DNA from: an uncultured virus (IMG/VR IMGVR_UViG_3300036835_000208)
Lineage: Duplodnaviria; Heunggongvirae; Uroviricota; Caudoviricetes
Direction: 5' to 3' (one strand)
Virus record (IMG/VR): IMGVR_UViG_3300036835_000208
DNA: 64,000 nucleotides
In this document: one piece after another, positions 3,238 to 60,068 of the stretch
Layout of the letters: each line of letters begins with the position of its first letter
Numbering within the stretch: position 1 is the first letter of the stretch
Translations under genes and position numbers: made by a program
The notes under the pieces: generated by a model
What the model was told of the DNA's origin: nothing
Database searches by the model: none
What the model saw: only the letters and a program-made list of their open reading frames with translations

Positions 3238-3609
3238 TTACTATCCCCTAACTAATAAATAGTTATTGCCTCCCCAGCCCCCACCCTACCGGGGGCAGCC
3301 GGGAAGAAGGTAATTACATATAAGGAACAGCTACGAGCCACGTCCCGTTTCCCTAGCCTCTCGGCCGGTCTATGCATAGGTTGCGGCCTACGTTGCTCTG
3401 TGGTATTGTCCTCCGCGAATTAGGCTCCTTTCGTGGTCTTTGCCAGATTGCGGGGGAGCCTAACTCATGTGCGGGGACGTTGCAAACTCCCTGCACAGAG
3501 CGGGAAACGACGGCGAGCCGGGCGCGCATGGGCTCGGAGGGAGAAGTCGTCGTCGTCTCCCCTTTCTCCATCCTGTAGAGCCTTCTCTCAACTGGCTAGA
3601 GCCCGCGTC

Positions 3610-5198: not shown

Positions 5199-5249
5199 GA
5201 GTTTTCGTGTAAGATGTGTAAGTCAACCACACAGGAAGGGGATAGCAGC

Positions 5250-18192: not shown

Positions 18193-18578
18193 TCTCCCTC
18201 ATCAATGGCAAAGTTGGTGCTGTTGAGAGCACCGAGACAACGGGGCATCCTGTTCGACCCCATTTCCCTAACGACGATGACCAGCTCTCCGACCTTCGGC
18301 ACCTTCAGCCTGGCCGTGGCTATCTTCACATCGGTAAAATAGTCGCCCCAGCCCCAGCCGGTGTTCTTCGGTGTCTCGTCGTAGTATTTCACTTCATACT
18401 CGAATCCATAGAGCGGAATCGGAACATCCTCCAGCTCTTTGATCCAGACCAGCCTGTTGTTGAGATCGTTCTTAGTAACGCGACTGATGATTACAGGGTC
18501 GCTGCGTCGTCCAGCAATTTCCTTCGTCAGCTTGGTGACGAACTCTCTGATCGAATCCCATTCGTGATCTTCAAGCAT
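18189..18578 (-). CDS. putative baseplate spike (OB-fold)
   Basis: PKVGELVIV...PRCLG motif, position between hub and wedge. Confidence 0.55.
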   Translation of the reverse strand: MLEDHEWDSIREFVTKLTKEIAGRRSDPVIISRVTKNDLNNRLVWIKELEDVPIPLYGFEYEVKYYDETPKNTGWGWGDYFTDVKIATARLKVPKVGELVIVVREMGSNRMPRCLGALNSTNFAIDEGE

Positions 18579-20851
18579 CAGTAGCCAATGTGAATGTGAT
18601 CCCAGTGGTCAGTAGTGATATGACAGGTATTTCCGCTGCCGTGTTCGGTATCCCACTGCTGGCAGGCTACGTCACTATCATCGTGGCCATTTCCATTACA
18701 AATGATCTGAGTCGGCAGCAAGCCTTGATCACCCAGACCTTTGAGGAATTGCATGATCGAAATAGTTACATCTTTTGATCCAGACCATTTGACAGGCTGA
18801 GCGCCAGTTTTCACCGTACCAACAAGGTCTACATCCACAGCCAGCCCCAGAGGATGCCTGCCCGAATTGCAGTGATGATCTTCGACAATGGCAAAAGTAC
18901 CGAGGCTGTAACCGGAATCCATCAGCGTGGAAAGGACAGCCGGTACTCGCCAGTCCAAATACACATCATTGCCGCACTGATTATGAAGAGTCTGCCCTTG
19001 GACAACTCTCGACAACTGATCATGCTCGTTGTTGCCAAGGCGGATCCTGCCAGCGGCCTCATAGTCGAGAACTCGCTGAGCCCAGTAAGGTGCCGACTTC
19101 TTGTTTTTATCAGCAGTGGGCGGCTTACCTGCGCCACCAGGAGGAACGGTGCCGGGTGGCCAGCCTCCCGGTGGAGGTTGCGGCTCTGAGCCGGGGATAG
19201 GAGTGCAGTCCAGGGCATCCCCGGCTAGGCCCAGAATTTTCTCTACACGACCACGGATGTCTGGAGCCCACTCAGGACAGCAATACTTTGGCCCGACATC
19301 CTCAATAGTATTGTTTTTTCCGCTCTTGTGATATGTACCGCTGAACGCCTTAGCATACTCCAGGTAAACATCACACCAGGAGTTAGAGCTAAAATCATAG
19401 GTATGGCCGGGACTACAATTCCAGCCCCAGGTATTGAACCAGCCGCACATCGACGTACCCAGGACACCCTCCAGGCGAGCGATAGCCGCAATCCAGACTG
19501 GATTCATGCCACCCTTGACGCCCTGCTCGACCATGCACTTACCCGTACCATTCATCGGTGAGTTAGGTTTCTCATCGCTAATGTATTTGTTAATGGCTGC
19601 GGCCAGCTTGTCAGCATCGACGATGTTCAAATACTGAGCGTTGCTCATGTCGCAGGTACCGTTGGGGCCTTTTCCTCCACCCTGACCGGGATTCAACGGC
19701 GCAGGAGCAGTACCCTTTCCCTGCTGTTGCACTGCGGTCGTCCACTGAGGATCGTCAGGAGTGCGCTGCGACAAAGCAAATCCTTCTTCGCGCAAGCGCA
19801 CCTCCTGGACAAACCCGGAGGCATCACCACGCACCGTAGTGCCGACAATGAAAAAGGTACCGTTGATGGCATAGGCGGGCAGGCGCACGGTACAGAGCGT
19901 ATTGCGCTCAATCAGAAATCCAGGATCAGGAATCGTCACTACCAGCTCCAGGGCTCCCACCTTGGATTCGTAAATTTCCTCGTCGGCAACCTTGCGCGCG
20001 CCCTTGGCATTGGTGACCGTACTGTTCTCGATGATCTTCACCGGCTTACGTAGCCAGTCCTGGATCTGCGTGTCGTAGGACGTGACTACCTGACGGCTGT
20101 TGTCGTCAGCCTGCTTACCCCAGACAACCTGTGCCTGCCAGATCCGCTGTTGAGCCGACTTGTGAAAGCTAAAATTTGTGATCGGCAGCTCATCATTCTT
20201 GAGAGGGACGGTGCCGAATGCGTACTTGGCCTGGCCTGATGTGAGCAAGGCCGAGGTCAGGGTACCGTCGGGCTCACACCACAGCCACAGTTTTTCCTTG
20301 CGGATCAGTCGGTACCAAAATTCCCAGTAGGTCTCCGAGCCATCGGTGTACTGACGCTTAGGCCCACCGGGAACAGGAGCCAGATTGAATTTCTCAAAAC
20401 CCAGCTCCTGAGCCTCTTGCCTGATGATCTCGGCAGCATTCAGACCCCGGTAGGTCTGGGGGATGTGAACAGAGTCGGTGGCAATCGAGGACAGATCCCT
20501 GCCGGAGAGCTGAATCGTGCCACTCTCGGTATAGGAGACATCATCGGTAATGCCGGTCATCAAATACACAATATCTGCACCGGCACCGAAAATCTGCACC
20601 CTGATCTCGGTATTGCGCGTCAGGGCATCGTTGAGATCCCCGTCGATATTGCCCAGCTCCAGCGACCAGGAATCAGCGTCGGTGTCGATCGCTGTCTCCA
20701 CGTTGTACTGCTCGACGCGGTGAACCGTCTGCGCCTTGTAGCTGCCACTACCTTCCCACTTGGACGTGAGTACGGCCTTGACCTGCGTGGGATCCAGAAC
20801 ACGCGGGCTCGGCGTGCTCAGAGGCTTGCTGGCCTCCTGTGCTACGGGCAC
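18578..20851 (-). CDS. baseplate hub (Mu gpP-like) fused to lysozyme-like and M15-like peptidase domains
   Basis: DADSWSLE, TGITD, LSGRD, W.EPDGTL (hub); NPVWIAAIARLE..NTWGW; SGRHPLGLAVD..HWDHIHIGY. Confidence 0.78.
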   Translation of the reverse strand: MPVAQEASKPLSTPSPRVLDPTQVKAVLTSKWEGSGSYKAQTVHRVEQYNVETAIDTDADSWSLELGNIDGDLNDALTRNTEIRVQIFGAGADIVYLMTGITDDVSYTESGTIQLSGRDLSSIATDSVHIPQTYRGLNAAEIIRQEAQELGFEKFNLAPVPGGPKRQYTDGSETYWEFWYRLIRKEKLWLWCEPDGTLTSALLTSGQAKYAFGTVPLKNDELPITNFSFHKSAQQRIWQAQVVWGKQADDNSRQVVTSYDTQIQDWLRKPVKIIENSTVTNAKGARKVADEEIYESKVGALELVVTIPDPGFLIERNTLCTVRLPAYAINGTFFIVGTTVRGDASGFVQEVRLREEGFALSQRTPDDPQWTTAVQQQGKGTAPAPLNPGQGGGKGPNGTCDMSNAQYLNIVDADKLAAAINKYISDEKPNSPMNGTGKCMVEQGVKGGMNPVWIAAIARLEGVLGTSMCGWFNTWGWNCSPGHTYDFSSNSWCDVYLEYAKAFSGTYHKSGKNNTIEDVGPKYCCPEWAPDIRGRVEKILGLAGDALDCTPIPGSEPQPPPGGWPPGTVPPGGAGKPPTADKNKKSAPYWAQRVLDYEAAGRIRLGNNEHDQLSRVVQGQTLHNQCGNDVYLDWRVPAVLSTLMDSGYSLGTFAIVEDHHCNSGRHPLGLAVDVDLVGTVKTGAQPVKWSGSKDVTISIMQFLKGLGDQGLLPTQIICNGNGHDDSDVACQQWDTEHGSGNTCHITTDHWDHIHIGY

Positions 20852-42286: not shown

Positions 42287-42493
42287 TCAACGCCTCTTTC
42301 TCCTTCTTCCTGCTGCCGACATCTTGGCCATTTTACGTTTCCCGTACTTTTTTCTTCCTATGTACGCTGCCAGAGCCTTGGGATTGCGGACACCCTTTCG
42401 GCCCTTCAATTGCCTCGTCAATTTCCTGAACCTGGCCCCCGAACCCAATTTTGCTTTGCGTCCTGTACTCTTTTTCCTTCTGCGTGCCATCAC
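42287..42493 (-). CDS. very basic small protein
   Basis: MARRRKKSTGRKAKLGSGARF..NPKALAAYIGRKKYG..RRRKRR. Confidence 0.7.
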   Translation of the reverse strand: MMARRRKKSTGRKAKLGSGARFRKLTRQLKGRKGVRNPKALAAYIGRKKYGKRKMAKMSAAGRRRKRR

Positions 42494-42935
42494 GGCCCCT
42501 TCGATTCAAAGCTGCCATCTCTTGCACTAGATAGCGCCGATATTCAACTGTCTCAAGAGGATGTCCAGCACGTCCTACAAGTTTGTGGGTTTTTATCATC
42601 GCAAGCGCAACATCAGCCTGCTTTTGCTTTAGCTTCAAATACGGATAGACATTTCTAAGCAACCGTAACGCCTTTTTGCTAGAAACCTTCCACTGATAGT
42701 GCGTTCTGTTATTTCCAGTACCTTCAACAGTAAAAACATGCCCTTCAGGGAAATTTTTGACCAAATAATCAATTAGGCGCTTATCCGTATTGGAAATTGA
42801 GATAACAAGGTTCCAATTCTCCCACTTACGAACGCCAGGCTTCGGCTTGACGTGAATCAGCATGATGCTGCCCTCGCCGTCCACAATCCCCGCCAAATAG
42901 GCCCGATCTACTGGTTTGAGCATTTTCTTGACCAT
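42333..42935 (-). CDS. LAGLIDADG homing endonuclease (single motif)
   Basis: AYLAGIVDGEGSI, ISISNTD, YQWKV, PYLKLKQKQA; AT-richer than its flanks. Confidence 0.9.
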   Translation of the reverse strand: MVKKMLKPVDRAYLAGIVDGEGSIMLIHVKPKPGVRKWENWNLVISISNTDKRLIDYLVKNFPEGHVFTVEGTGNNRTHYQWKVSSKKALRLLRNVYPYLKLKQKQADVALAMIKTHKLVGRAGHPLETVEYRRYLVQEMAALNRRGRDGTQKEKEYRTQSKIGFGGQVQEIDEAIEGPKGCPQSQGSGSVHRKKKVRET

Positions 42936-44724: not shown

Positions 44725-45286
44725 GCAGCGACTCCATCTGCTCGATTAGCTGTGCAGCCTTCTCCTGCACCTCGGGGGAGGCATTGCGCAGGGAGTCGGT
44801 AATTCCGTCGTCGGAGAAGGTGGTCATCTGCTCCTCGGTCTTGTGCACGGTGGCCTCGGAGCGGGACATCTTCGGCAGCCCGCAGCGATCGAGGATGTCC
44901 GAGGCAGCCTGCAGGATCCACTTGTCGTCCGTGGAGGAGCGCATGACATCGACAATCGCCTGCACGGCCTCGATCGAGTAGGACTGCAGGAGGTTGTAGG
45001 CGGCGGCGGGGATTTTCTCCCTCAGCTCGACCAACAGCTCCTGCATGTCCGGCGTGCGCATGAACTCGTTGACCTGCGTGTGGGCGAGACCGACCACGGC
45101 ACCAATTTGCTGATTGCTGTAACCGGCGATTTTGAGAATGGCAGCCATCTCCTTGAGGTGCTGCTCCTCGCCGGTGACCAGCTTGCGACGGCGCTCGTGG
45201 GTGAGCTTGTACTGACGGCGGATGCGGTTGCTGCCCTCCTCCAGGATCAACTGCCTGGACTCGGGATCGCGTGGAGTTCTAGGCAA
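44693..45286 (-). CDS. putative terminase small subunit (HTH + oligomerisation helices)
   Basis: GYSNQQIGAVVGL HTH, LQAASDILDRCG motif. Confidence 0.6.
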   Translation of the reverse strand: MPRTPRDPESRQLILEEGSNRIRRQYKLTHERRRKLVTGEEQHLKEMAAILKIAGYSNQQIGAVVGLAHTQVNEFMRTPDMQELLVELREKIPAAAYNLLQSYSIEAVQAIVDVMRSSTDDKWILQAASDILDRCGLPKMSRSEATVHKTEEQMTTFSDDGITDSLRNASPEVQEKAAQLIEQMESLLEASAGESEN

Positions 45287-46955
45287 CGAAATTACCTCCT
45301 CGTTGAAATGCCTCACCCAGGGCAGCAGGGACGGCCAGGCCGGGATTCCTGAGCGTGGCCACTGTGCAGAACATATCGGCGTGGTGCCAGTGGTCGAGAT
45401 TGCGGTTCTTTTTCCACCTGGCCACCATCCGGCCCTGGACATCCTCCTCCTCGACCCTGACCTGCTGGATCATTTGGTAATAGAAACCGTTGTATTCACG
45501 GTTCTCGATGTTCTCCCCGATCTCGCGAGCGTAGTGGGGGAGGATGACCTGCCCGTGGATGTACTGGTAGATGACGGTGTCGAAGGCCAGGGTGCGGTCG
45601 ATCACGCAGCGAGCCGCCTCCCGGTGCTTGATCGTGTGCCAGTGAGCGATCTCCTCCGTCTGCGGACGATCCTGCTCGAAACCGAGCCAGACCCGGCCAG
45701 GGTATTTCAAAGAGAGATCCCGAGCCGCTCTTTTTTCCGGATGAGCGTCGATCACGCACATGAAGCCGATCAGGCCGCTGAGGAAATTATCGAGTTCGCT
45801 CCATTCGCGGAAGATCCGAAAGGCCCACGCTTTGCGGTGCCCGTGGCGGGTGAGGGTGTCTGCACGGACGTGCAGATGGGTGCCCACATCCACCCCAACG
45901 AAAACGGGGCCTTCCGGGATCCCGCCCTCTCGATGTCCTGAAACCCGACACTTGTCCAGGATCTCGGGCGTCAGTTGGTCTCCCTCGGCGACATAGGGGA
46001 GACCAAGGTTGTTGTTGAAAAAAGACTTGAGCCGCTTGGAATCCCGCTGCCCGGCGAAGTAGCCCTTGAGGATGTCGGTCAGCGGCTGCGTGGGCGAGTT
46101 GAATTGATTGATGTGGTAGCCACGCAGATGACCGTTGAGATTCTGGGGAGTCCAGCGACCGAACTCGTTGAGGGCAAAGCGGTGCCTGTCCTGGATCTGC
46201 TGGCGGCAGTGCTGGCAGACGAGCACAGACTCATCGGGGGTATCCCCCAGTTTTACATTTTCATCGAAATTGAAAGCCTGGAAGCGACCGCAGTGCGGGC
46301 AGGGGACTTCCCAGTGGTGCTGATCGGAGGCCCACCAGGCATCCTCGGCATCGACCCCATGACCGGGGGCGGTGGGAGTAGAGAGTTGGACGAGCTTCTT
46401 GATCCTGGAGCCGTCCATGCGGTGGCGGGCGTCATCGAGGTTTTCCTCGATCATGCGATCGCGCTCGTCCCAGACTTCGACATCGACAGGAATTTCCTGC
46501 AGCTCGCGATTGATATTGGTACCCCGGATGTAAACGGAGATGCCGTCCCGGGTCTGCTTGTGCAGGCGGTTATCGACGGTGGAGAAAATCTCCCTGATCT
46601 CCGGATTGCTCTCGATGATGGGGTCGATACGGGCCTGCACGAAGGGGACTGCTCCCGTCTTTAGCGGCAGGAGGTAGAGGTGGTGCCAGCGGCGCTGTGT
46701 CGTCCAGTGCAGCGTGCGGGTGAGGAAGGTGACGGTGAAGGCCATCTGCGCCGCCTTGGGGATGATGATTTCATCGGACATATCCCTGATCACGGCCGTG
46801 ACGTACTCCCGACCCGCAAGGCTGAAAGGTTTGCCGTCCACTCTCAGTCCCATACTGAGTGCCCACTCATCGGGGCGTGCTAGTTGCCTGACCTGAGAGA
46901 ATTGCTTCCGTTTCCTGAGCGATTGCCTGCTCGGAGCTGAAGAAGCCGACGACAT
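45279..46955 (-). CDS. terL: terminase large subunit, lambda GpA-like
   Basis: KAAQMAFT, DERDRM, LSTPT, SDQ..W.VPCPHCG, CQHC, GYHINQ, FFNNNLG, GVDVG, DHWHHA. Confidence 0.92.
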   Translation of the reverse strand: MSSASSAPSRQSLRKRKQFSQVRQLARPDEWALSMGLRVDGKPFSLAGREYVTAVIRDMSDEIIIPKAAQMAFTVTFLTRTLHWTTQRRWHHLYLLPLKTGAVPFVQARIDPIIESNPEIREIFSTVDNRLHKQTRDGISVYIRGTNINRELQEIPVDVEVWDERDRMIEENLDDARHRMDGSRIKKLVQLSTPTAPGHGVDAEDAWWASDQHHWEVPCPHCGRFQAFNFDENVKLGDTPDESVLVCQHCRQQIQDRHRFALNEFGRWTPQNLNGHLRGYHINQFNSPTQPLTDILKGYFAGQRDSKRLKSFFNNNLGLPYVAEGDQLTPEILDKCRVSGHREGGIPEGPVFVGVDVGTHLHVRADTLTRHGHRKAWAFRIFREWSELDNFLSGLIGFMCVIDAHPEKRAARDLSLKYPGRVWLGFEQDRPQTEEIAHWHTIKHREAARCVIDRTLAFDTVIYQYIHGQVILPHYAREIGENIENREYNGFYYQMIQQVRVEEEDVQGRMVARWKKNRNLDHWHHADMFCTVATLRNPGLAVPAALGEAFQRGGNFVA

Positions 46956-46970
46956 CGAATGCAGTCTAGT

Positions 46971-47031
46971 GGGAGAGGAAAAAAGAGAGGAGGGAGAAAG
47001 GAGGGGAGAGAGGGAAGGGAGGAGGAGGGAG
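46971..47031. repeat. 61-nt pure polypurine/polypyrimidine tract
   Basis: Only G and A on the plus strand from 46971 to 47031. Confidence 0.9.
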
Positions 47032-47084
47032 CGAGTTGCAGAAGCCTCCACTCCCTCCCCCGGGGGGAACAGCGAGGTTAGCTG

Positions 47085-48867: not shown

Positions 48868-49125
48868 CTACGATCCTGCCCGGAGCCGCTCGATTCGCTC
48901 CATGTAGGCTCCCGGCCGTGGCTGCGCTGACGTGAGCCACTTGCCGTAAACGTCCCACCCGGGCCATTCAAGACGGAATGCCTCCCACAGCCGCAAGCGC
49001 AAGCCTGCTAGGTGGCTATGCTGTGGATCGCTCGGGTGATACTGCTCTGCCTCGTCTCGCAAGAGATTCGCCAGCTTTTCCACGTCATAACAGCGCGGAT
49101 AGAGCCAGTCTGGACGATTTTCCAC
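48868..49125 (-). CDS. hypothetical protein
   Basis: RBS GGGGAGG before a GTG start. Confidence 0.55.
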   Translation of the reverse strand: MENRPDWLYPRCYDVEKLANLLRDEAEQYHPSDPQHSHLAGLRLRLWEAFRLEWPGWDVYGKWLTSAQPRPGAYMERIERLRAGS

Positions 49126-49220
49126 TTTGTAATCCTCCCCGTGTGTGTCTGGAACTAGCAGGCTGCTAGCTCCGGGATGACTCCCCGTGACGGGAGCCAC
49201 CCGCAGCTACTTCCTACTTC

Positions 49221-50231
49221 CTACGCGCAGACATCCGCCAGCACGCGCAAAACTTCCGTGTCGGCTGCTGCCTGCGATCCGTTCACAGCGTTTTCCATGT
49301 TGCGCACAGCGCGCGGGATACCCTTACGTACCTGTGCGTAGTGATGCGACCATGTGTTAAACGCCTGCAGGACACCGAGTGCCGTACCTTTCCACTGCGC
49401 GGCTCGCTCGTCATGGCGATAGAGCGCCATCATCTGATCCTGTTTGGTAATAGCCACTGTCCTACCGCGTCCCTCGTCTTGCGGAACAGGCACAAGGATG
49501 TCCAGGGCCTTCGTCCACTGGCTCTCAGACACTTTCCACGCAGCGAGCCTCTCTAGCTCTTCTGCGAAGTCATCCGCCAAGGAGTAGACAAGCTGGAGAG
49601 CCTCTCGCGCATCCTGCAGCCGCATACCGCTGTATTTGGTATGCCGCAGCCGGAAAGCTTGATCCCGTTCGCCAAGCGCAGCCGACAGCGTGTTATCGCA
49701 GACGACGGCCGTCACGGTGCGCTTGTAGGTCGTGGCAAGCGAACCGTCAAACGATGTGCAGGCCAGAAGATGCGGCCGGTACTCCATTCCGACAGCCGAG
49801 GAATTCTCCTCCACTTCCACGCTCACCCAAGCCTGTGCCCGATTGCGCAGCAGACCGGCCGAGCCAATCTGCAGCGTGTCGTCCAGGATCGTCGCCACGT
49901 TCGACAAGAGCCATTCGCTGTACTGATGGCCCTGATAGCCACTTTTGAAAACGCCGAGGACATCGCCCGTGTCGGACGTTACCAGCGCTTTCCGATCGGG
50001 AATGCCGACATAGGACAGAATGCCGTCCGTCTCGATCGTGGTGAATAGCTCACGCTCCTCGACTGTGAAATCGAACAGCCTGCGCTGAACGTCGTCCACG
50101 GGGATGGCTCCAGGGTAATGATTCGACTCTTCTCCCTGCTCCGTCTCCCGGTAGTGCCAAGCATGGCCGCGCTTCTCAGTGAATCCGATCAGCGTATGCG
50201 TGTTGAGCCATTTGCTCGACTCTTGCGACAT
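49221..50231 (-). CDS. DUF932 (TIGR03299-like) protein
   Basis: AWH, DTGDVLGV...Y, SAGLL, SFDGS, VVCDNTL, RHT, GTALGV. Confidence 0.88.
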   Translation of the reverse strand: MSQESSKWLNTHTLIGFTEKRGHAWHYRETEQGEESNHYPGAIPVDDVQRRLFDFTVEERELFTTIETDGILSYVGIPDRKALVTSDTGDVLGVFKSGYQGHQYSEWLLSNVATILDDTLQIGSAGLLRNRAQAWVSVEVEENSSAVGMEYRPHLLACTSFDGSLATTYKRTVTAVVCDNTLSAALGERDQAFRLRHTKYSGMRLQDAREALQLVYSLADDFAEELERLAAWKVSESQWTKALDILVPVPQDEGRGRTVAITKQDQMMALYRHDERAAQWKGTALGVLQAFNTWSHHYAQVRKGIPRAVRNMENAVNGSQAAADTEVLRVLADVCA

Positions 50232-50361
50232 TGTGAAACCTCCCGTGTGCGTGGATAGAACGGTATTGCTCTATCCCGTCTGGCTCCTTGTGAGAGCCAC
50301 GCGGGATAGCCGCAGACAACGGGGAGACTTGAAGCAGAGCAGCTCCGTTCGCATTACCTGT

Positions 50362-50643
50362 CTAGAGTGTTAGCTGCGGGTCTGGCCCGAGCAGGATCGA
50401 ATTTTCGTTCGGCTCCTCAATGGTGTCGTCCATGCAGGGACGACGATTCACTAGCTCCAGCACCGAGGCCGGAGCCTGCAGATACGGGTGGTAATAATCG
50501 CTGTACGCCTGCTCCCGATCCGTGTCGAACGTGAAGCTTCGCCCGGGCACATTGTCCCGAACGACGATTCGCAAGTCTCCCTGCCGATCCTGGAGCAGCA
50601 CGAGCGAGCCGATACCGTCCACCCGCCGACCAAGCAGGATCAC
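50362..50643 (-). CDS. hypothetical protein
   Basis: GTGA coupling with upstream gene, YYHPY motif. Confidence 0.5.
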   Translation of the reverse strand: MILLGRRVDGIGSLVLLQDRQGDLRIVVRDNVPGRSFTFDTDREQAYSDYYHPYLQAPASVLELVNRRPCMDDTIEEPNENSILLGPDPQLTL

Positions 50644-50744
50644 TCTTGCTCCTCGGCCGGTGTGACCCCTAGCACGAGCAGGACACCGAGTGAGACTGCG
50701 AGGCAGGCTATTACCACTGCCGCGCCGATCAGATTCGCGATCAC
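50640..50744 (-). CDS. 34-aa membrane peptide
   Basis: RBS GGAGGAG, one TM helix, coupled overlaps at both ends. Confidence 0.5.
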   Translation of the reverse strand: MIANLIGAAVVIACLAVSLGVLLVLGVTPAEEQE

Positions 50745-50899
50745 TGCTCCTCCTCCTGTGACGGAGGAGGAATGCGACCGGCTCCAGGAGGAGCCATACC
50801 GGCCGCCGTTCGATTGCCGTACAGCCGCGATGCGGCACGCTCCTGAAAACGGAGCCATGCTGCCTCGCTCTTGCGCAAGTTGCTTCCCGTGTGAGTCAT
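50741..50899 (-). CDS. small hypothetical protein (alternative TTG start at 50878)
   Basis: Manual translation MTHTGSNLRKSEAAWLRFQERAASRLYG... Confidence 0.4.
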   Translation of the reverse strand: MTHTGSNLRKSEAAWLRFQERAASRLYGNRTAAGMAPPGAGRIPPPSQEEEQ

Positions 50900-51181
50900 T
50901 CGTGAACTAGCTCCATTCCGGAGCTGCTCTCATTCAAGTCTCCCCCATGCCTGCGAATCGGCTCCATGCGGGAGCCATGCAAAACGCACACATCAGGGGA
51001 TTACCGATTAGTGCGCTGGAGTCCTAACGGCCGTGAGGCGGTTTCGTGAATCCCTTGCGGGGCACTTGACGTCCTCCAGCTATGTCCGCCCCGCGCCTGC
51101 GAGGCAGGCAGAGCTTACACCCTGCACAGGAAATTGCAAGCCCTACCGTCGCGGGCGCAATTATCGGGACAGTCTAATTTC

Positions 51182-51210
51182 TTGACAGACGGGCTCGGGG
51201 CTGTTACCGT
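51182..51210 (+). promoter_or_regulatory. sigma70-type promoter with no clear downstream ORF
   Basis: TTGACA-17-TACCGT with a TGn extension. Confidence 0.55.
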
Positions 51211-51904
51211 TAGCCGCAGCATGATGTAATTAGTAGCGGTAAGTAGCGGGTCGGATTAGAGCGCAGGATTATAATTACAATCTATAGCAGATTGTTTTTG
51301 TATTCCTGCAGGGATTGGCCGGGACTATCGCCAGCTCAATTCCATCCCATTAATTACATCATCTCAGCGAAATACGGGTTTGGCAAATTGAGCCACCCGG
51401 GAGCGGGTCGCCCTGACACCAGCCAGACACCGGAATTTTTGCTCAATTTTTTGGGCCTCGGCCGGAGAGGAGGGATGCTCGGCAACGTGGAGGCCTGGTC
51501 TGCCGCGCGGACAGGGGAGAGAACCCACGTGGACTCTCCTCTCCAGTCGTCTGGCCCGCTTACGATCCTAGCAGCTCTCTGTGCATTCCTCTTGCGTCGG
51601 CGCGTCGGCAGTTGTGGAGCTAGGATCACCTGGCCCGGAGGCTGAGGGAGCTTCCTGTAGTTATCTGTACCAATACGGCCAGTATCCCGGTGCGCGGATG
51701 ACACAGGAGGCTCTCTGAGCCCCTGCGAGGCCCCGGGGGTAGGTCTGACTAGGGTTCGACCTACGATCGCCTGAGAATGGCTCCTGTGCCCGTACAGAGG
51801 CATATTCCCGTGACTGCTCAGACTTGGCGCTCGGAGCGGCGCGGCGTCAGAATTCGAGACCGACGTTAATACCGACGCCGATCCCAGGGCAGGCAATTAA
51901 CTAG

Positions 51905-52050
51905 AGGAAAAGCAAAGAGCCCCGGGATGTGAGTCCCGAGGCTCTCGCTTGTGACTTACCCGGACGGTCTCAGCCGTTAATGGTGCCGGGTCATCACGCT
52001 CCGATATGGGGATAGCCGCATCGGAACTTTGACACACACAGGAAGAACCT
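51905..52050 (-). ncRNA. candidate structured sRNA / 3' UTR with anti-RBS seeds
   Basis: Successive hairpins. Contains CGGCUAUCCCC and CUUCCUGUGUGUGUC, complementary to early-gene RBS motifs. Confidence 0.4.
51908..51950 (-). terminator. intrinsic terminator of the early operon
   Basis: Minus strand GAGAGCCTCGGGAC-loop-TCCCGGGGCTCTTTGCTTTT. Confidence 0.65.
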
Positions 52051-52545
52051 TCACAGTAGCACAGGCTGGAAGATAGCGGCGACCGTAACTCTCAGTACAT
52101 TCTTTTTCAGCGGCGTCACTCGATGTTCCCACTGGCTAGGAAACACTACTAGGTCTCCATAAATAGCAGGACAGAGAGTAGGCATCCTGGCAATCGGGTT
52201 TCTTCTCGGTTTCTTTATTTGTAGCGCGCCGCCGTCTGTCTTGTAATCAAGGTTGCTGAGAAAGAGCGTGGCGCTGAGTGTGTCCGGCCTGCCTTCCCTA
52301 TGCCATCCAAAGTCATGGCTCTGGCGCGTGAGGATGTGAACCCTGCAGCCGCCGACGCCTGACATCAGCTCCATCGGATGATCGGCCAGCGTGGAGGCGA
52401 TACCCTCCAGAGTCGGCGCGAGCTGTTCCCACCAGGGGATACTCGTACGGTCTCGCATCTCGGGCTTGTCACCTGGCTTCAGATCCTCGGCCAGCCAGCC
52501 ATCGGAAACAAAATTGATAAGCGGAGCAAGAGTCAGTCGGATCAT
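52051..52545 (-). CDS. 2OG-Fe(II) oxygenase (prolyl-4-hydroxylase-like)
   Basis: FGWHRE, TLFLS..DGGAL, GDLVVFPS..HRVTP..RVTV. Confidence 0.8.
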   Translation of the reverse strand: MIRLTLAPLINFVSDGWLAEDLKPGDKPEMRDRTSIPWWEQLAPTLEGIASTLADHPMELMSGVGGCRVHILTRQSHDFGWHREGRPDTLSATLFLSNLDYKTDGGALQIKKPRRNPIARMPTLCPAIYGDLVVFPSQWEHRVTPLKKNVLRVTVAAIFQPVLL

Positions 52546-52967: not shown

Positions 52968-53001
52968 GCTATCCCCTTTGGTCGAATTACCTTATAGCCC
53001 T

Positions 53002-53030
53002 ACGGTAGCATAATTACATCTAGCTGTCAG
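53002..53030 (-). promoter_or_regulatory. sigma70-type promoter
   Basis: CTGACA-17-TACCGT, TGTAATT in the spacer. Confidence 0.6.
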
Positions 53031-53364: not shown

Positions 53365-53407
53365 TTTGCTATCCCCTCTCGTTCGCTGATTACATCTTAC
53401 TCGCTCT

Positions 53408-53436
53408 AGGATACACAATTACACTTTACCTGTCAA
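53408..53436 (-). promoter_or_regulatory. sigma70-type promoter
   Basis: TTGACA-17-TATCCT, TGTAATT in the spacer. Confidence 0.75.
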
Positions 53437-53594: not shown

Positions 53595-53608
53595 TTTGCT
53601 ATCCCCTT

Positions 53609-54061: not shown

Positions 54062-54272
54062 TTTTGCTATCCCCTCTCTCAAACCGCGCAGTGAGAATAT
54101 CGTTCTCATTGTTAATTGGAAGCCCTGGGTCAGCCAGGCTGAAGCCAGCCGCAGGAGTTACATAGAAAATACTACGCTCTCCTAGCTTGTCCCAAGACAG
54201 GACAACAAAACCGACAGGCGTCTCTACTAGCACCTGCTCCCGGGGCTCTGTGAGCTTAACAGTTACGGCCAT
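54033..54272 (-). CDS. hypothetical protein
   Basis: Variant motif GGGATAAC upstream. Confidence 0.5.
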   Translation of the reverse strand: MAVTVKLTEPREQVLVETPVGFVVLSWDKLGERSIFYVTPAAGFSLADPGLPINNENDILTARFERGDSKNADVYETGR

Positions 54273-54277
54273 TTCAG

Positions 54278-54514
54278 TTATCCCACCCTCTCGAACGGCG
54301 ACGAGAAATGCAGCAGCGCACCGGGAGGGAACGGGGCCTGTAGATCCTCCCCAAACCATTCCTGGAGCCGCTCAAGCGTATCGGGCTCCTCGTCCACGTC
54401 TATGCGCGTATCTGTCTCGAAGCAGTGAATCAGGTAGGTATTCACGAACCCATGCTTCCACGCTGCATCAAACGCTACGCGCTTATTTCCTTTTACAATC
54501 AGTGACCTTCTCAC
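54278..54514 (-). CDS. hypothetical protein
   Basis: AGGGGATAGCC before the GTG. Confidence 0.6.
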   Translation of the reverse strand: MRRSLIVKGNKRVAFDAAWKHGFVNTYLIHCFETDTRIDVDEEPDTLERLQEWFGEDLQAPFPPGALLHFSSPFERVG

Positions 54515-54550
54515 GGCTATCCCCTCTCACTCGAATTACACACTGAGCGG

Positions 54551-54579
54551 AGTCTACAGAATTACACTTCACCTGTCAA
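54551..54579 (-). promoter_or_regulatory. sigma70-type promoter
   Basis: TTGACA-17-TAGACT, TGTAATT in the spacer. Confidence 0.75.
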
Positions 54580-55615: not shown

Positions 55616-55633
55616 TGCTATCCCCTTTTGAAA

Positions 55634-58821: not shown

Positions 58822-60068
58822 TGGAAATTGAGGACACCGATCCGTCTGTCTACGATGTCGAAGATCCTCGCGTTTTCTTTACCTGGGTGTTGGCGAAGCG
58901 TTCGTCCGATTTGCTGGACGATTCTTCCCTCATGCTTTCCAGGATATGTGAGCATGACTCTATTGCATCTTGGCACATCGAGAGCTTCGTCTGCAAGCTG
59001 AGTAGCAAGGAGACATTTAATCCTGCCTTCTTTGAAATCTCGAAGGACTCGCCTTCGATCAGCCACTGAATGCTCTCCTGTAAGAACCTCAGCCGGGTAT
59101 TGTAAATGATCAGCGATTCGTCTAAGGTGCTCAATTCTGCGGCTAAGAACGAGGATACTATTTCCCCCAGCAGTCTCTCTGTCGATGATATCTGCAATTA
59201 ACCCATTCCTCCTCTCATCGGTAACCAGCGCGTTAAGCAGGTCGTGCCAATCCCAGCGACCACGATACGGGTAACGAAAATCGGTATAGACCGGCTTTAC
59301 CTTCAGCTCAATCGGGCTGGTAAATTTCTGTTTGTGAATGACCGGGCCAATCAGGATCGGCAGGTAGGGGTGCAAACCATCGGCCCGCTTGTCCGTGGCC
59401 GTGAATCCGAAGCGATAGTGAGCGGGCAGGTTATTGAGCACCTTCTCATACGTATCCGCAGCGGAGTGATGGCCTTCATCGACCACAACGGCTCCCCACT
59501 GAGCCCACCATTCGTCCGGCCTATTACCGAGCTGTCGGTGCAAGGTCTGAATCGTCCCGATCGTGATATGCCCGACCGTCTTGCTCCCGGAAGCAATCAC
59601 TCCAGGCTCAACCTCGGGCATCGAGTCACGGATGTAATCAAGCCACTGATTGAGAATATCCTTGGTGTGAACAATTACCAAGGTGCGCGTGCGGGCTCTG
59701 GCAGCAAAGGCCAGGGCGATGTTAGACTTTCCGGTACCAGGGGGGCGCAGGATGATGCCCTGCTCGTAGCGGAGCATGGCGTCAACCGCATCTTTCTGGC
59801 CCGCAAACCTCTGATCCTTGGCCGTGTTGTCGAGCTGCACGTTGAAGCTCAGCGCGGGCAGGTTTGGCTTGCTGCGCTTGTCTATGTAATTAAGATCATC
59901 GACAAACTGCCAGGCTCCGCGTGGCATCTCAATCGCCGCACCGTAGTGCAAGCGGTAACAGGTACAGGTCTGATCCCCCACGGGGAACGTGAGCTGTCGA
60001 AGCAGTTTTTTCCTTCGAGCCTCAGGCAACTCATTCCAGCCGAGGGTGATAATGCTATCTACTCGCAT
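58749..60068 (-). CDS. SF2 DNA helicase (UvsW/ResIII-like)
   Basis: PPGTGKS, DEGHH, GFTAT..RADG, EALDVP, QQIGRTLR. Confidence 0.92.
   Translation of the reverse strand: MRVDSIITLGWNELPEARRKKLLRQLTFPVGDQTCTCYRLHYGAAIEMPRGAWQFVDDLNYIDKRSKPNLPALSFNVQLDNTAKDQRFAGQKDAVDAMLRYEQGIILRPPGTGKSNIALAFAARARTRTLVIVHTKDILNQWLDYIRDSMPEVEPGVIASGSKTVGHITIGTIQTLHRQLGNRPDEWWAQWGAVVVDEGHHSAADTYEKVLNNLPAHYRFGFTATDKRADGLHPYLPILIGPVIHKQKFTSPIELKVKPVYTDFRYPYRGRWDWHDLLNALVTDERRNGLIADIIDRETAGGNSILVLSRRIEHLRRIADHLQYPAEVLTGEHSVADRRRVLRDFKEGRIKCLLATQLADEALDVPRCNRVMLTYPGKHEGRIVQQIGRTLRQHPGKENARIFDIVDRRIGVLNFQWKQRKQTYHKLRIPIIKRKLVWR

Follow-up and report, generated by a model that had tools for sequence, protein, structure and literature searches.

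The 64,000 nucleotides of DNA analysed here (the window) come from an uncultured virus of the Caudoviricetes, IMG/VR record IMGVR_UViG_3300036835_000208. In this window the 3' untranslated region (3'UTR) of a 2OG-Fe(II) oxygenase gene, at 51905-52050 on the minus strand, contains reverse complements of two short motifs that stand before the starts of non-structural genes. One motif is similar to the start-associated sequences (SAS) of actinophages, and the other has the pattern CACACRGGRRG; we call both of them tags, their reverse complements anti-tags, and the 3'UTR the tail. We propose that the tail is an anti-SAS RNA which, as a 3'UTR or as a processed small RNA (sRNA), pairs with the tagged start regions and holds back their translation. 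Our probability for this reading is roughly 45%; accumulation of the RNA, its pairing in vivo, and repression of translation are all three inferred. The mirror copies of both tags lie at positions that an RNA regulator would require, in a soil phage unrelated to the SAS phages. If the reading is true, one small RNA element would provide a phage-private post-transcriptional control, timing the translation of about 12 scattered genes.

The SAS-like tag, GGGGATAGC, has exactly eight exact copies in the window, compared with a Markov expectation of 0.13-0.54 per strand. Seven of the eight copies sit 0-4 nt 5' of start codons. Six of these belong to small minus-strand genes between 52.7 and 55.6 kb, which are non-homologous and had no family in common in our scans, and the seventh (5238-5246, plus strand) belongs to an ATPase gene. 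With a near copy in front of a DnaB-like helicase gene, the fuller form of the tag, RARAGGGGATAGC, marks eight genes, six of which start with ATG. RARA flanks and an A-rich spacer are also common to the GGGGATAGC sites. The tagged genes are early or replication genes, the tag has one orientation relative to the start, and the structural block (9-47 kb) contains no GGGGATAGC start tag. The second tag, CACACRGGRRG, has exactly five copies, two on the plus strand (5228 and 52035) and three on the minus strand (49135, 50239, and 50883). The copy at 50883 is not a ribosome-binding site (RBS), because it is 25-35 nt away from ATG 50858, which has its own GAGG. In the ATPase leader the CACAC tag lies directly upstream of the GGGGATAGC tag. 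The SAS-like tag stands before non-homologous genes, and positions that presumably have no obvious rRNA partner are conserved in it; this calls for a sequence-specific reader. A T7-like promoter reading of the tag was dropped; the tagged genes have sigma-70-like promoters, and no RNA polymerase family was matched in Pfam among the 67 proteins scanned, which are part of the open reading frames (ORFs). Six copies of the 8-mer GGGATAGC lie away from gene starts (5811, 14171, 17213, 33790, 50303, and 52009), all on the plus strand and four of them inside coding sequence. Including the copy in the ATPase RBS, the plus strand has seven where about 1-1.7 are expected, which may be due to chance or codon usage.

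The eighth exact copy of GGGGATAGC is an orphan at 52008-52016 on the plus strand, which is followed by CGC ATC and thus has neither a start codon nor an ORF. It lies 27 nt from the orphan CACAC copy at 52035, and both complements fall within 40 nt of the 105 nt that separate the oxygenase stop codon (TGA, 52053-52051) from the terminator. With uniform base frequencies, the 9-mer and the 11-mer pattern are expected to co-occur on the same strand, at a distance of up to 50 nt, about 1e-4 times per window. The closeness of the two reversed tags is not explained by chance. Minus-strand transcription must run through the tail, since the tail is located between a gene stop and its terminator; the hairpin at 51915-51946 has a good U tract in the minus direction only. 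The minus-strand RNA from 52053 to 51905 folded with -65.4 kcal/mol (z -4.71), and none of 200 shuffles was as stable. The plus-strand fold of the same stretch reached -56.7 kcal/mol (z -2.8), so that the minus strand is better by 8.7 kcal/mol. The minus-strand RNA begins with an open 5' stretch, which is followed by the hairpin with the CUAUCC loop, a second hairpin, and the terminator. Two seeds are displayed in this fold. Opening of the 15-nt seed 1 in the tail alone costs 1.3 kcal/mol (rank 3 of 132), and the CUAUCC loop in seed 2 is 0.99 unpaired (rank 2 of 141). The TCCGAT/ATCGGA hairpin around seed 2 spans 52001-52026 and is extended by G-U pairs on the minus strand only. By its location between stop and terminator, with a seed predicted to be accessible, the tail has the layout of a 3'UTR-derived sRNA. 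Coding readings of the tail (46-aa and 51-aa minus-strand ORFs, an 8-codon plus-strand mini-ORF, and an ATC-started 19-codon frame) were rejected with no support and no family match. Rfam gave no match in the window at the gathering score, and the seven weak matches in 50200-52100 at E up to 10 were at chance level.

A preliminary description of the window, made from the letters alone, had reported much of this arrangement. The structured non-coding stretch between the oxygenase stop and the minus-strand terminator, the UCCGAU/AUCGGA hairpin with one seed in its upper part and loop, the two targets back to back at 5228-5246, and the missing start codon behind the plus-strand copy at 52008 were all recovered. 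Its estimate that this seed is complementary to the start motif of at least seven genes agrees with the seven exact starts and one near copy, and the 11-nt match at 54514-54524 is present. For the other seed, the claimed pairing with CACACRGGRRG was found as 15 bp with 2 G-U at 49135-49149 and at the sites 50239 and 50883, but the last of these could not be retained as an RBS.

Pairing of the tail with 75 start regions was calculated with a model of ungapped helices and opening energies. This model replaced plain RNAduplex energies, which were uninformative because all 75 targets reached -15 or lower via long looped structures. A net energy of -8 kcal/mol or better was obtained for 12 of the 75 start regions (the energies of individual targets are given in Table 1). 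The best helices reach past the shared cores, to 19 bp at 49131-49149 and to 13 bp over the GUG at 54514. Dinucleotide shuffles of the tail had 1.6 such targets on average and 7 at most, and none of the 150 shuffles matched the 12 of the tail. Thus, the check with shuffled controls that the preliminary description had proposed came out in favor of the tail. In 438 natural windows of the minus strand, such targets averaged 1.2, and the tail window was in the top four. The predicted pairing of the tail is therefore far better than chance and is not unique in the genome.

Table 1 Coordinates of the tail, the tagged start sites, and associated elements, with modeled net energies of pairing with the tail
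Feature	Position	Strand	Details	Net energy (kcal/mol)
Structured 3'UTR, candidate anti-SAS RNA	51905..52050	-	open 5' stretch, three hairpins, U tract	
Seed 1, GGUUCUUCCUGUGUGUGUC (core CUUCCUGUGUG)	52031..52049	-	complementary to CACACRGGRRG sites	
Seed 2, UGCGGCUAUCCCC	52008..52020	-	complementary to GGGGATAGC; exact 9-nt complement of 7 start sites	
Seed-2 hairpin	51998..52027	-	stem of 9 + 2 pairs, loop CUAUCC; in minimum free energy and centroid structures	
Intrinsic terminator stem	51915..51946	-	13 pairs, 8 G-C (terminator scan); U tract TTTGCTTTTCC on to about 51905	
Second anti-tag copy, UGCGGCUAUCCC	50303..50314	-	DUF932 leader; 12/12 nt identical to the loop element (blastn-short)	
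Six GGGGATAGC start tags	52968-52976, 53368-53376, 53598-53606, 54066-54074, 54516-54524, 55617-55625	-	small early genes; for the 54278-54514 gene, 13 bp covering its GUG	-10.7 (54278-54514 gene)
Both tags back to back (CACACAGGAAG-GGGATAGC)	5228..5246	+	3 nt before ATG (5250) of AAA_25/KaiC-like ATPase	-9.1
Near copy GGGGATAGT	3240..3248	-	2 nt before GTG of DnaB-like helicase gene	-6.0
Other tagged genes				-6.0 to -8.9
CACAC tag GACACACACGGGGAG	49135..49149	-	RBS before GTG 49125 of the 85-aa gene (48868-49125); 19-bp helix, 5 G-U, at 49131-49149	-22.1
CACAC tag of DUF932 gene	50239..50252	-	RBS; ATG 50231	-15.5
CACAC motif, leader of 50858 gene	50883..50893	-	not an RBS; 25-35 nt before likely start ATG 50858	-11.9
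Promoter cassette TTGACA-N17-TACCGT-N13-ATGTAATT	51182..51231	+	early-promoter family; faces the tail; no ORF behind	
Likely structured non-coding RNA converging on the tail	51217..51950	+	fold and RNA contigs	
2OG-Fe(II) oxygenase gene, last of the minus-strand early block	52051..52545	-	Pfam PF13640 (2OG-FeII_Oxy_3), E 2.1e-6; PHROG 81; ORF list	

In the proposed mechanism, the phage would mark two sets of non-structural genes, with the SAS-like tag on eight genes and CACAC-GGRRG on the ATPase and the DUF932 operon. As the end of the early message from the minus strand, the tail would display one antisense copy per tag, in the single-stranded 5' stretch and in the hairpin loop, and would base-pair with the tagged start regions to block ribosome entry. 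It may do so while still attached to the mRNA, or as a fragment that is protected by the terminator and persists after the mRNA is gone. The early genes would thereby come under a delayed negative feedback, and the next operon would be controlled as well.

A second anti-tag of 12 nt is present on the same strand in another non-coding leader, that of the DUF932 gene, and as a sequence match it argues for the anti-SAS RNA. In the predicted fold it can pair in cis with GGGAUAG (50277-50283), within one of two alternative hairpins. In this leader (50255-50314, minus strand) the motifs GCUAUCCC, GGGAUAGAGC, and GUUCUAUCC are consecutive and give two mutually exclusive hairpins just 5' of the CACAC-type RBS, an attenuator-like layout of a tag and its complement.

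SAS-type over-conserved start tags are known from hundreds of actinophage genomes. The SAS of Cluster K is a 13-bp sequence, GGGATAGGAGCCC, of which each genome has 11-19 copies in one orientation, 3-7 bp ahead of non-structural gene starts (Pope et al. 2011, PMC3203893). In four K1 phages, each genome is described there as having one reversed SAS copy away from gene starts (PMC3203893). Microbacterium phages of Cluster EF are described as having their own SAS. In a 2024 study of Adephagia, the upstream element ESAS was shown to be a SigA-like promoter containing an inverted repeat, and the passages on SAS state that its role is not known (PMC11373665). The role of SAS is called unknown in the relevant parts of publications of 2011, 2020, 2024, and 2025, and the 2025 paper still calls for experimental verification. 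The Cluster K papers, in the sections considered here, assign no function to SAS or its reversed copy. No report tying SAS to antisense RNA was found among the papers covered by a literature search on this point.

The window tag is similar to SAS in that it is an over-conserved, asymmetric motif at the RBS position, a few nt before the starts of many non-homologous non-structural genes. The window tag and the Cluster K consensus begin with the same seven letters, GGGATAG. Upstream of a subset of the window tags stands a sigma-70/SigA-like promoter cassette in which an operator-like motif recurs (TTGACA-N17-TAnnnT and RTGTAATY), a parallel to ESAS, and, as in Cluster K, a single reversed copy lies away from gene starts (here 52008-52016, plus strand). 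On the other hand, the window motif is shorter (9-13 versus 13 nt), lacks the GAGCCC half, and has fewer copies (8 versus 11-19 in Cluster K). Sequence homology to the consensus GGGATAGGAGCCC was not found, since only GGGATAG is shared and the 3' half differs. The RTGTAATY repeats are direct whereas the ESAS repeat is inverted, and the window phage has two different tags with the complements of both in one 3'UTR. It is also an uncultured soil myovirus-like phage without DNA similarity to Cluster K. Judged from the sequence, the window tag closely resembles the SAS type: it is over-conserved and multicopy, it is linked to starts in non-structural genes, and it has a reversed orphan copy. By analogy, the Cluster K tags and their reversed copy provide a class-level parallel for the anti-SAS RNA.

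We searched for reversed SAS copies in two actinophages. In Anaya, 17 SAS matches with up to two mismatches were found in 28-60.8 kb, 16 forward and 1 reversed. The reversed copy forms the apical loop of a hairpin on the transcribed strand of a 385-nt unannotated gap, and the region folds with z -5.96. This gap (59682-60066) follows gp96 and has a strong terminator-like hairpin at its beginning. The gap region is present in 135 mycobacteriophage records and is mostly unannotated there. In nine relatives sampled down the identity ranking from these records, the loop CCUCCUAUCCC was kept in seven, and in the outer stem of the hairpin one pair was changed on both sides and several on one side. 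In the part of AnnaSerena (Microbacterium, Cluster EF) that was searched, nine forward SAS copies were found at up to one mismatch. In this phage, GGGGTCCTT pairs with GAAAGGAC just 5' of the gp20 ATG, and such a partial anti-SAS could mask an SAS-like RBS in cis. A generalization would be that SAS are addresses read by phage-encoded antisense RNA. The dual-seed tail would then read two classes of them, the convergent plus-strand RNA would perhaps be its antidote, and the reversed hairpin of Cluster K would be the same device in phages that can be cultured. We regard this generalization as doubtful. The anti-SAS model offers a testable answer to the purpose of SAS, which has been a puzzle since 2011.

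Several observations weigh against the anti-SAS RNA. Opening of the whole 9-nt seed 2 costs 4.6 kcal/mol. When 150 nt of upstream coding sequence were attached, seed 1 was predicted to be paired and its opening cost rose to 6.6, so that seed 1 would depend on processing or on ribosome traffic to be free. At its threshold, the promoter scan detected no separate promoter for the tail RNA. Most tagged genes reach net energies of only -6 to -9, and three other natural windows, the antisense of the ATPase leader and the coding segments 46867 and 7155, score about equally to the tail. The order of the seeds, as inferred from the sequence, is wrong for one continuous duplex on the ATPase leader. AnnaSerena has no reversed SAS at up to two mismatches, just pieces of 8-9 nt, and therefore the anti-tag is not universal. 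No relatives holding the tail region were found in viral, metagenome, and genome collections. RNA contigs from four soil metatranscriptomes do not cover 51905-52050, the tagged early genes, or DUF932, which says little because the depth elsewhere is only 2-4. Accordingly, the RBS-occluding 3'UTR RNA of the preliminary description retains its location, the minus-strand fold, the exposed seeds, and the pairing energies, while the three competing windows, the one CACAC site that is not an RBS, and the seed order weaken it.

On the plus strand, a promoter cassette at 51182 faces the tail. The pattern TTGACA-N17-TAnnnT-N9-13-RTGTAATY has three matches in the window, at 54579 and 53436 on the minus strand, both before tagged early genes, and at 51182 on the plus strand. 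At least three tagged genes are preceded by a promoter cassette. No credible ORF lies behind the 51182 promoter, and the ORFs there have no family. The stretch 51217-51950 folds with -326.7 (z -5.4) on the plus strand and -291.5 (z -4.4) on the minus strand. Two of the four metatranscriptomes contributed RNA contigs here, at 51348-51501 and 51398-51624. From the fold and the contigs, it is probable that a large, structured, non-coding plus-strand RNA converges on the tail, and this RNA may extend into the tail, since the terminator hairpin lacks a U tract when read on the plus strand. It had no Rfam match and no similarity in the relatives retrieved. The operator-like RTGTAATY occurs twice per early promoter, in the spacer and just downstream (54534-54567, 53388-53424, and 52985-53019), and on both strands at about 51.2-51.4 kb (51224-51231 and 51352-51359). 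Relatives identified by their large terminase (TerL) carry related repeated 9-mers (GAATTACAC, TGAAATT) on both strands, which are promoter- or operator-like and not start tags, and RTGTAATY therefore has the look of a regulator site that is conserved within the phage group. Only one stretch, 50343-50923, has RNA contigs from each of the four metatranscriptomes. It holds two small, probably coding genes, 50640-50858 (72 aa) and 50362-50643 (93 aa), joined by a GTGA overlap; the 72-aa protein is membrane-like, its C-terminal helix being hydrophobic. The gene pair is flanked by an inverted repeat of about 28 nt (about 25/28 matching; 50316-50343 and 50918-50945), at which the contigs end, perhaps because the assembly broke there.

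The plus strand might itself be the functional one. RNA from 51182 would then read through 51915-51946 and carry the sense tags as a decoy or sponge, or act as an antisense RNA to the oxygenase 3' end; the target of the decoy would be a tag-reading protein, 30S subunits, or the minus-strand tail. The 51182 promoter, on which the decoy alternative of the preliminary description relied, proved to be a true member of the early-promoter family with RNA contigs behind it, and its pattern occurs otherwise only at two early-gene promoters. The plus-strand fold of 51217-51950 is better by 35 kcal/mol, the hairpin at 51915-51946 would not stop this RNA by a U tract, the tags are fairly open on the plus strand (opening costs 1.6 and 6.3), and the copy at 52008 matches the RBS and start of the ATPase at 13 of 14 positions, with ATC for ATG. 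However, the contigs stop at 51624, short of 52008, and the local fold of the tail is better on the minus strand. The anti-tag at 50303 would require plus-strand transcription inside the leader of the DUF932 operon, of which there is no sign, and no tag-binding protein is known. We thus consider a functional plus strand unlikely.

It also seems quite unlikely that the tail is a relic, in which two start-region cassettes were inverted by recombination when the oxygenase gene was acquired, their loop and open placement is coincidental, and no function is left. Phage genomes are mosaic, the oxygenase is a typical accessory gene, the plus-strand copy with its dead start codon (ATC) resembles the ATPase start region at the same 13 of 14 positions, and no relative with the region was found through which conservation could show. 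Nevertheless, a single event could hardly have produced two different cassettes that lie 27 nt from each other and both lack an ORF behind them, the tag order is swapped relative to 5228-5246, and the 18-nt spacer forms a hairpin exactly around one copy. The copies are exact or near-exact whereas a relic should decay, and there is the second 12-nt copy at 50303. Finally, a protein could read the tags, either as a RegA-like translational repressor on RNA or as a stoperator-like DNA binder, and the reversed copies would be further sites on DNA or plus-strand RNA. In what they write on the matter, Pope et al. leave both an RNA and a protein reader of SAS open (PMC3203893). Conservation of the tag fits a protein site equally, and both tags adjoin at 5228-5246 and at 52008-52045, like a composite site. 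The tight spacing to start codons argues instead for action on mRNA, on which the 52008 copy is antisense in the minus-strand message and invisible to an RNA-binding protein. No candidate binder was found among the proteins scanned, and the display of the complement in a hairpin loop, here and in Anaya, would be left unexplained. A protein reader therefore appears improbable.

The window phage is an uncultured soil phage of myovirus-like type (baseplate J, Mu gp48). Nearly all genes are on the minus strand, including a gpA-type TerL at 45279-47051. The structural set consists of a capsid protein, baseplate J, a Mu gp48-like protein, and tail-collar proteins, and the replication set of DnaB-like, primase, RecA-like, and helicase genes. 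Relatives were searched by protein-anchored scans (oxygenase, DUF932, TerL, and the 340-aa tagged gene) and DNA-pattern scans (tag plus start; promoter cassette). These scans yielded only an identical 44-kb record in IMG/VR and distant phages, the nearest of which share with the window only TerL (up to 71%) and the DUF932 protein (61%). One TerL relative (55%) is located in a metagenome-assembled genome labeled Acidobacteria. When 47-57 kb was compared by blastn with 54 relative loci, the matches were confined to DUF932 and a stretch next to the small terminase, and mycobacteriophages showed no DNA similarity to the window. A 16-mer tag scan gave 53 loci, with more than one tag only in the phage's own record. 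Elsewhere in the window, a LAGLIDADG homing endonuclease ORF (42333-42935, minus strand; Pfam E 9e-6) is flanked on one side by the portal/terminase block and on the other by a 775-aa protein containing a glycosyl-hydrolase-like domain. ARAGORN reported a tRNA-Ser (GGA) at 19419-19502 (minus strand) within a 757-aa baseplate-hub-like ORF (18578-20851), probably a false call or an overlap.

Among known RNA regulators, the CI RNA of phage P4 is a comparison system alongside the c4 RNA. The c4 antisense RNA of P1 and P7 is described as processed from the 5' part of an operon and as controlling icd-ant for immunity (PMC12197685, PMC8546580). The tail would share with c4 and CI that a phage RNA from the same transcription unit as its targets displays short complements in loops, which pair around the RBS and block translation. 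It differs in that c4 serves one operon from its 5' part, whereas the window element is a 3'UTR with about 12 dispersed predicted targets in two sequence classes. The C4 family (Rfam RF01695) had no match in the window at the gathering score and was absent from the seven weak matches mentioned above. In the icaR mRNA 3'UTR of Staphylococcus aureus, RNAIII, and RsaE, pyrimidine-rich anti-Shine-Dalgarno (SD) sequences in a 3'UTR or in hairpin loops pair with SD regions. RNAIII and RsaE, which are sRNAs with C-rich loops, have several targets, and the seeds of all three match a generic SD. In contrast, the window seeds also match tag letters outside the SD (AUAGC, CACAC), and therefore the regulon would be phage-private. 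CpxQ, SdhX, and DapZ are enterobacterial 3'UTR-derived sRNAs that act on host regulons with Hfq. The tail is similar to them in its stop-to-terminator location, a seed in the open 5' part, and a terminator shared with the mRNA, but it is predicted to target genes of the phage itself, including some on its own transcript. Thus, the proposed mechanism of the tail resembles those of P1 c4 and of 3'UTR anti-SD elements, and the tail is not a member of the C4 family.

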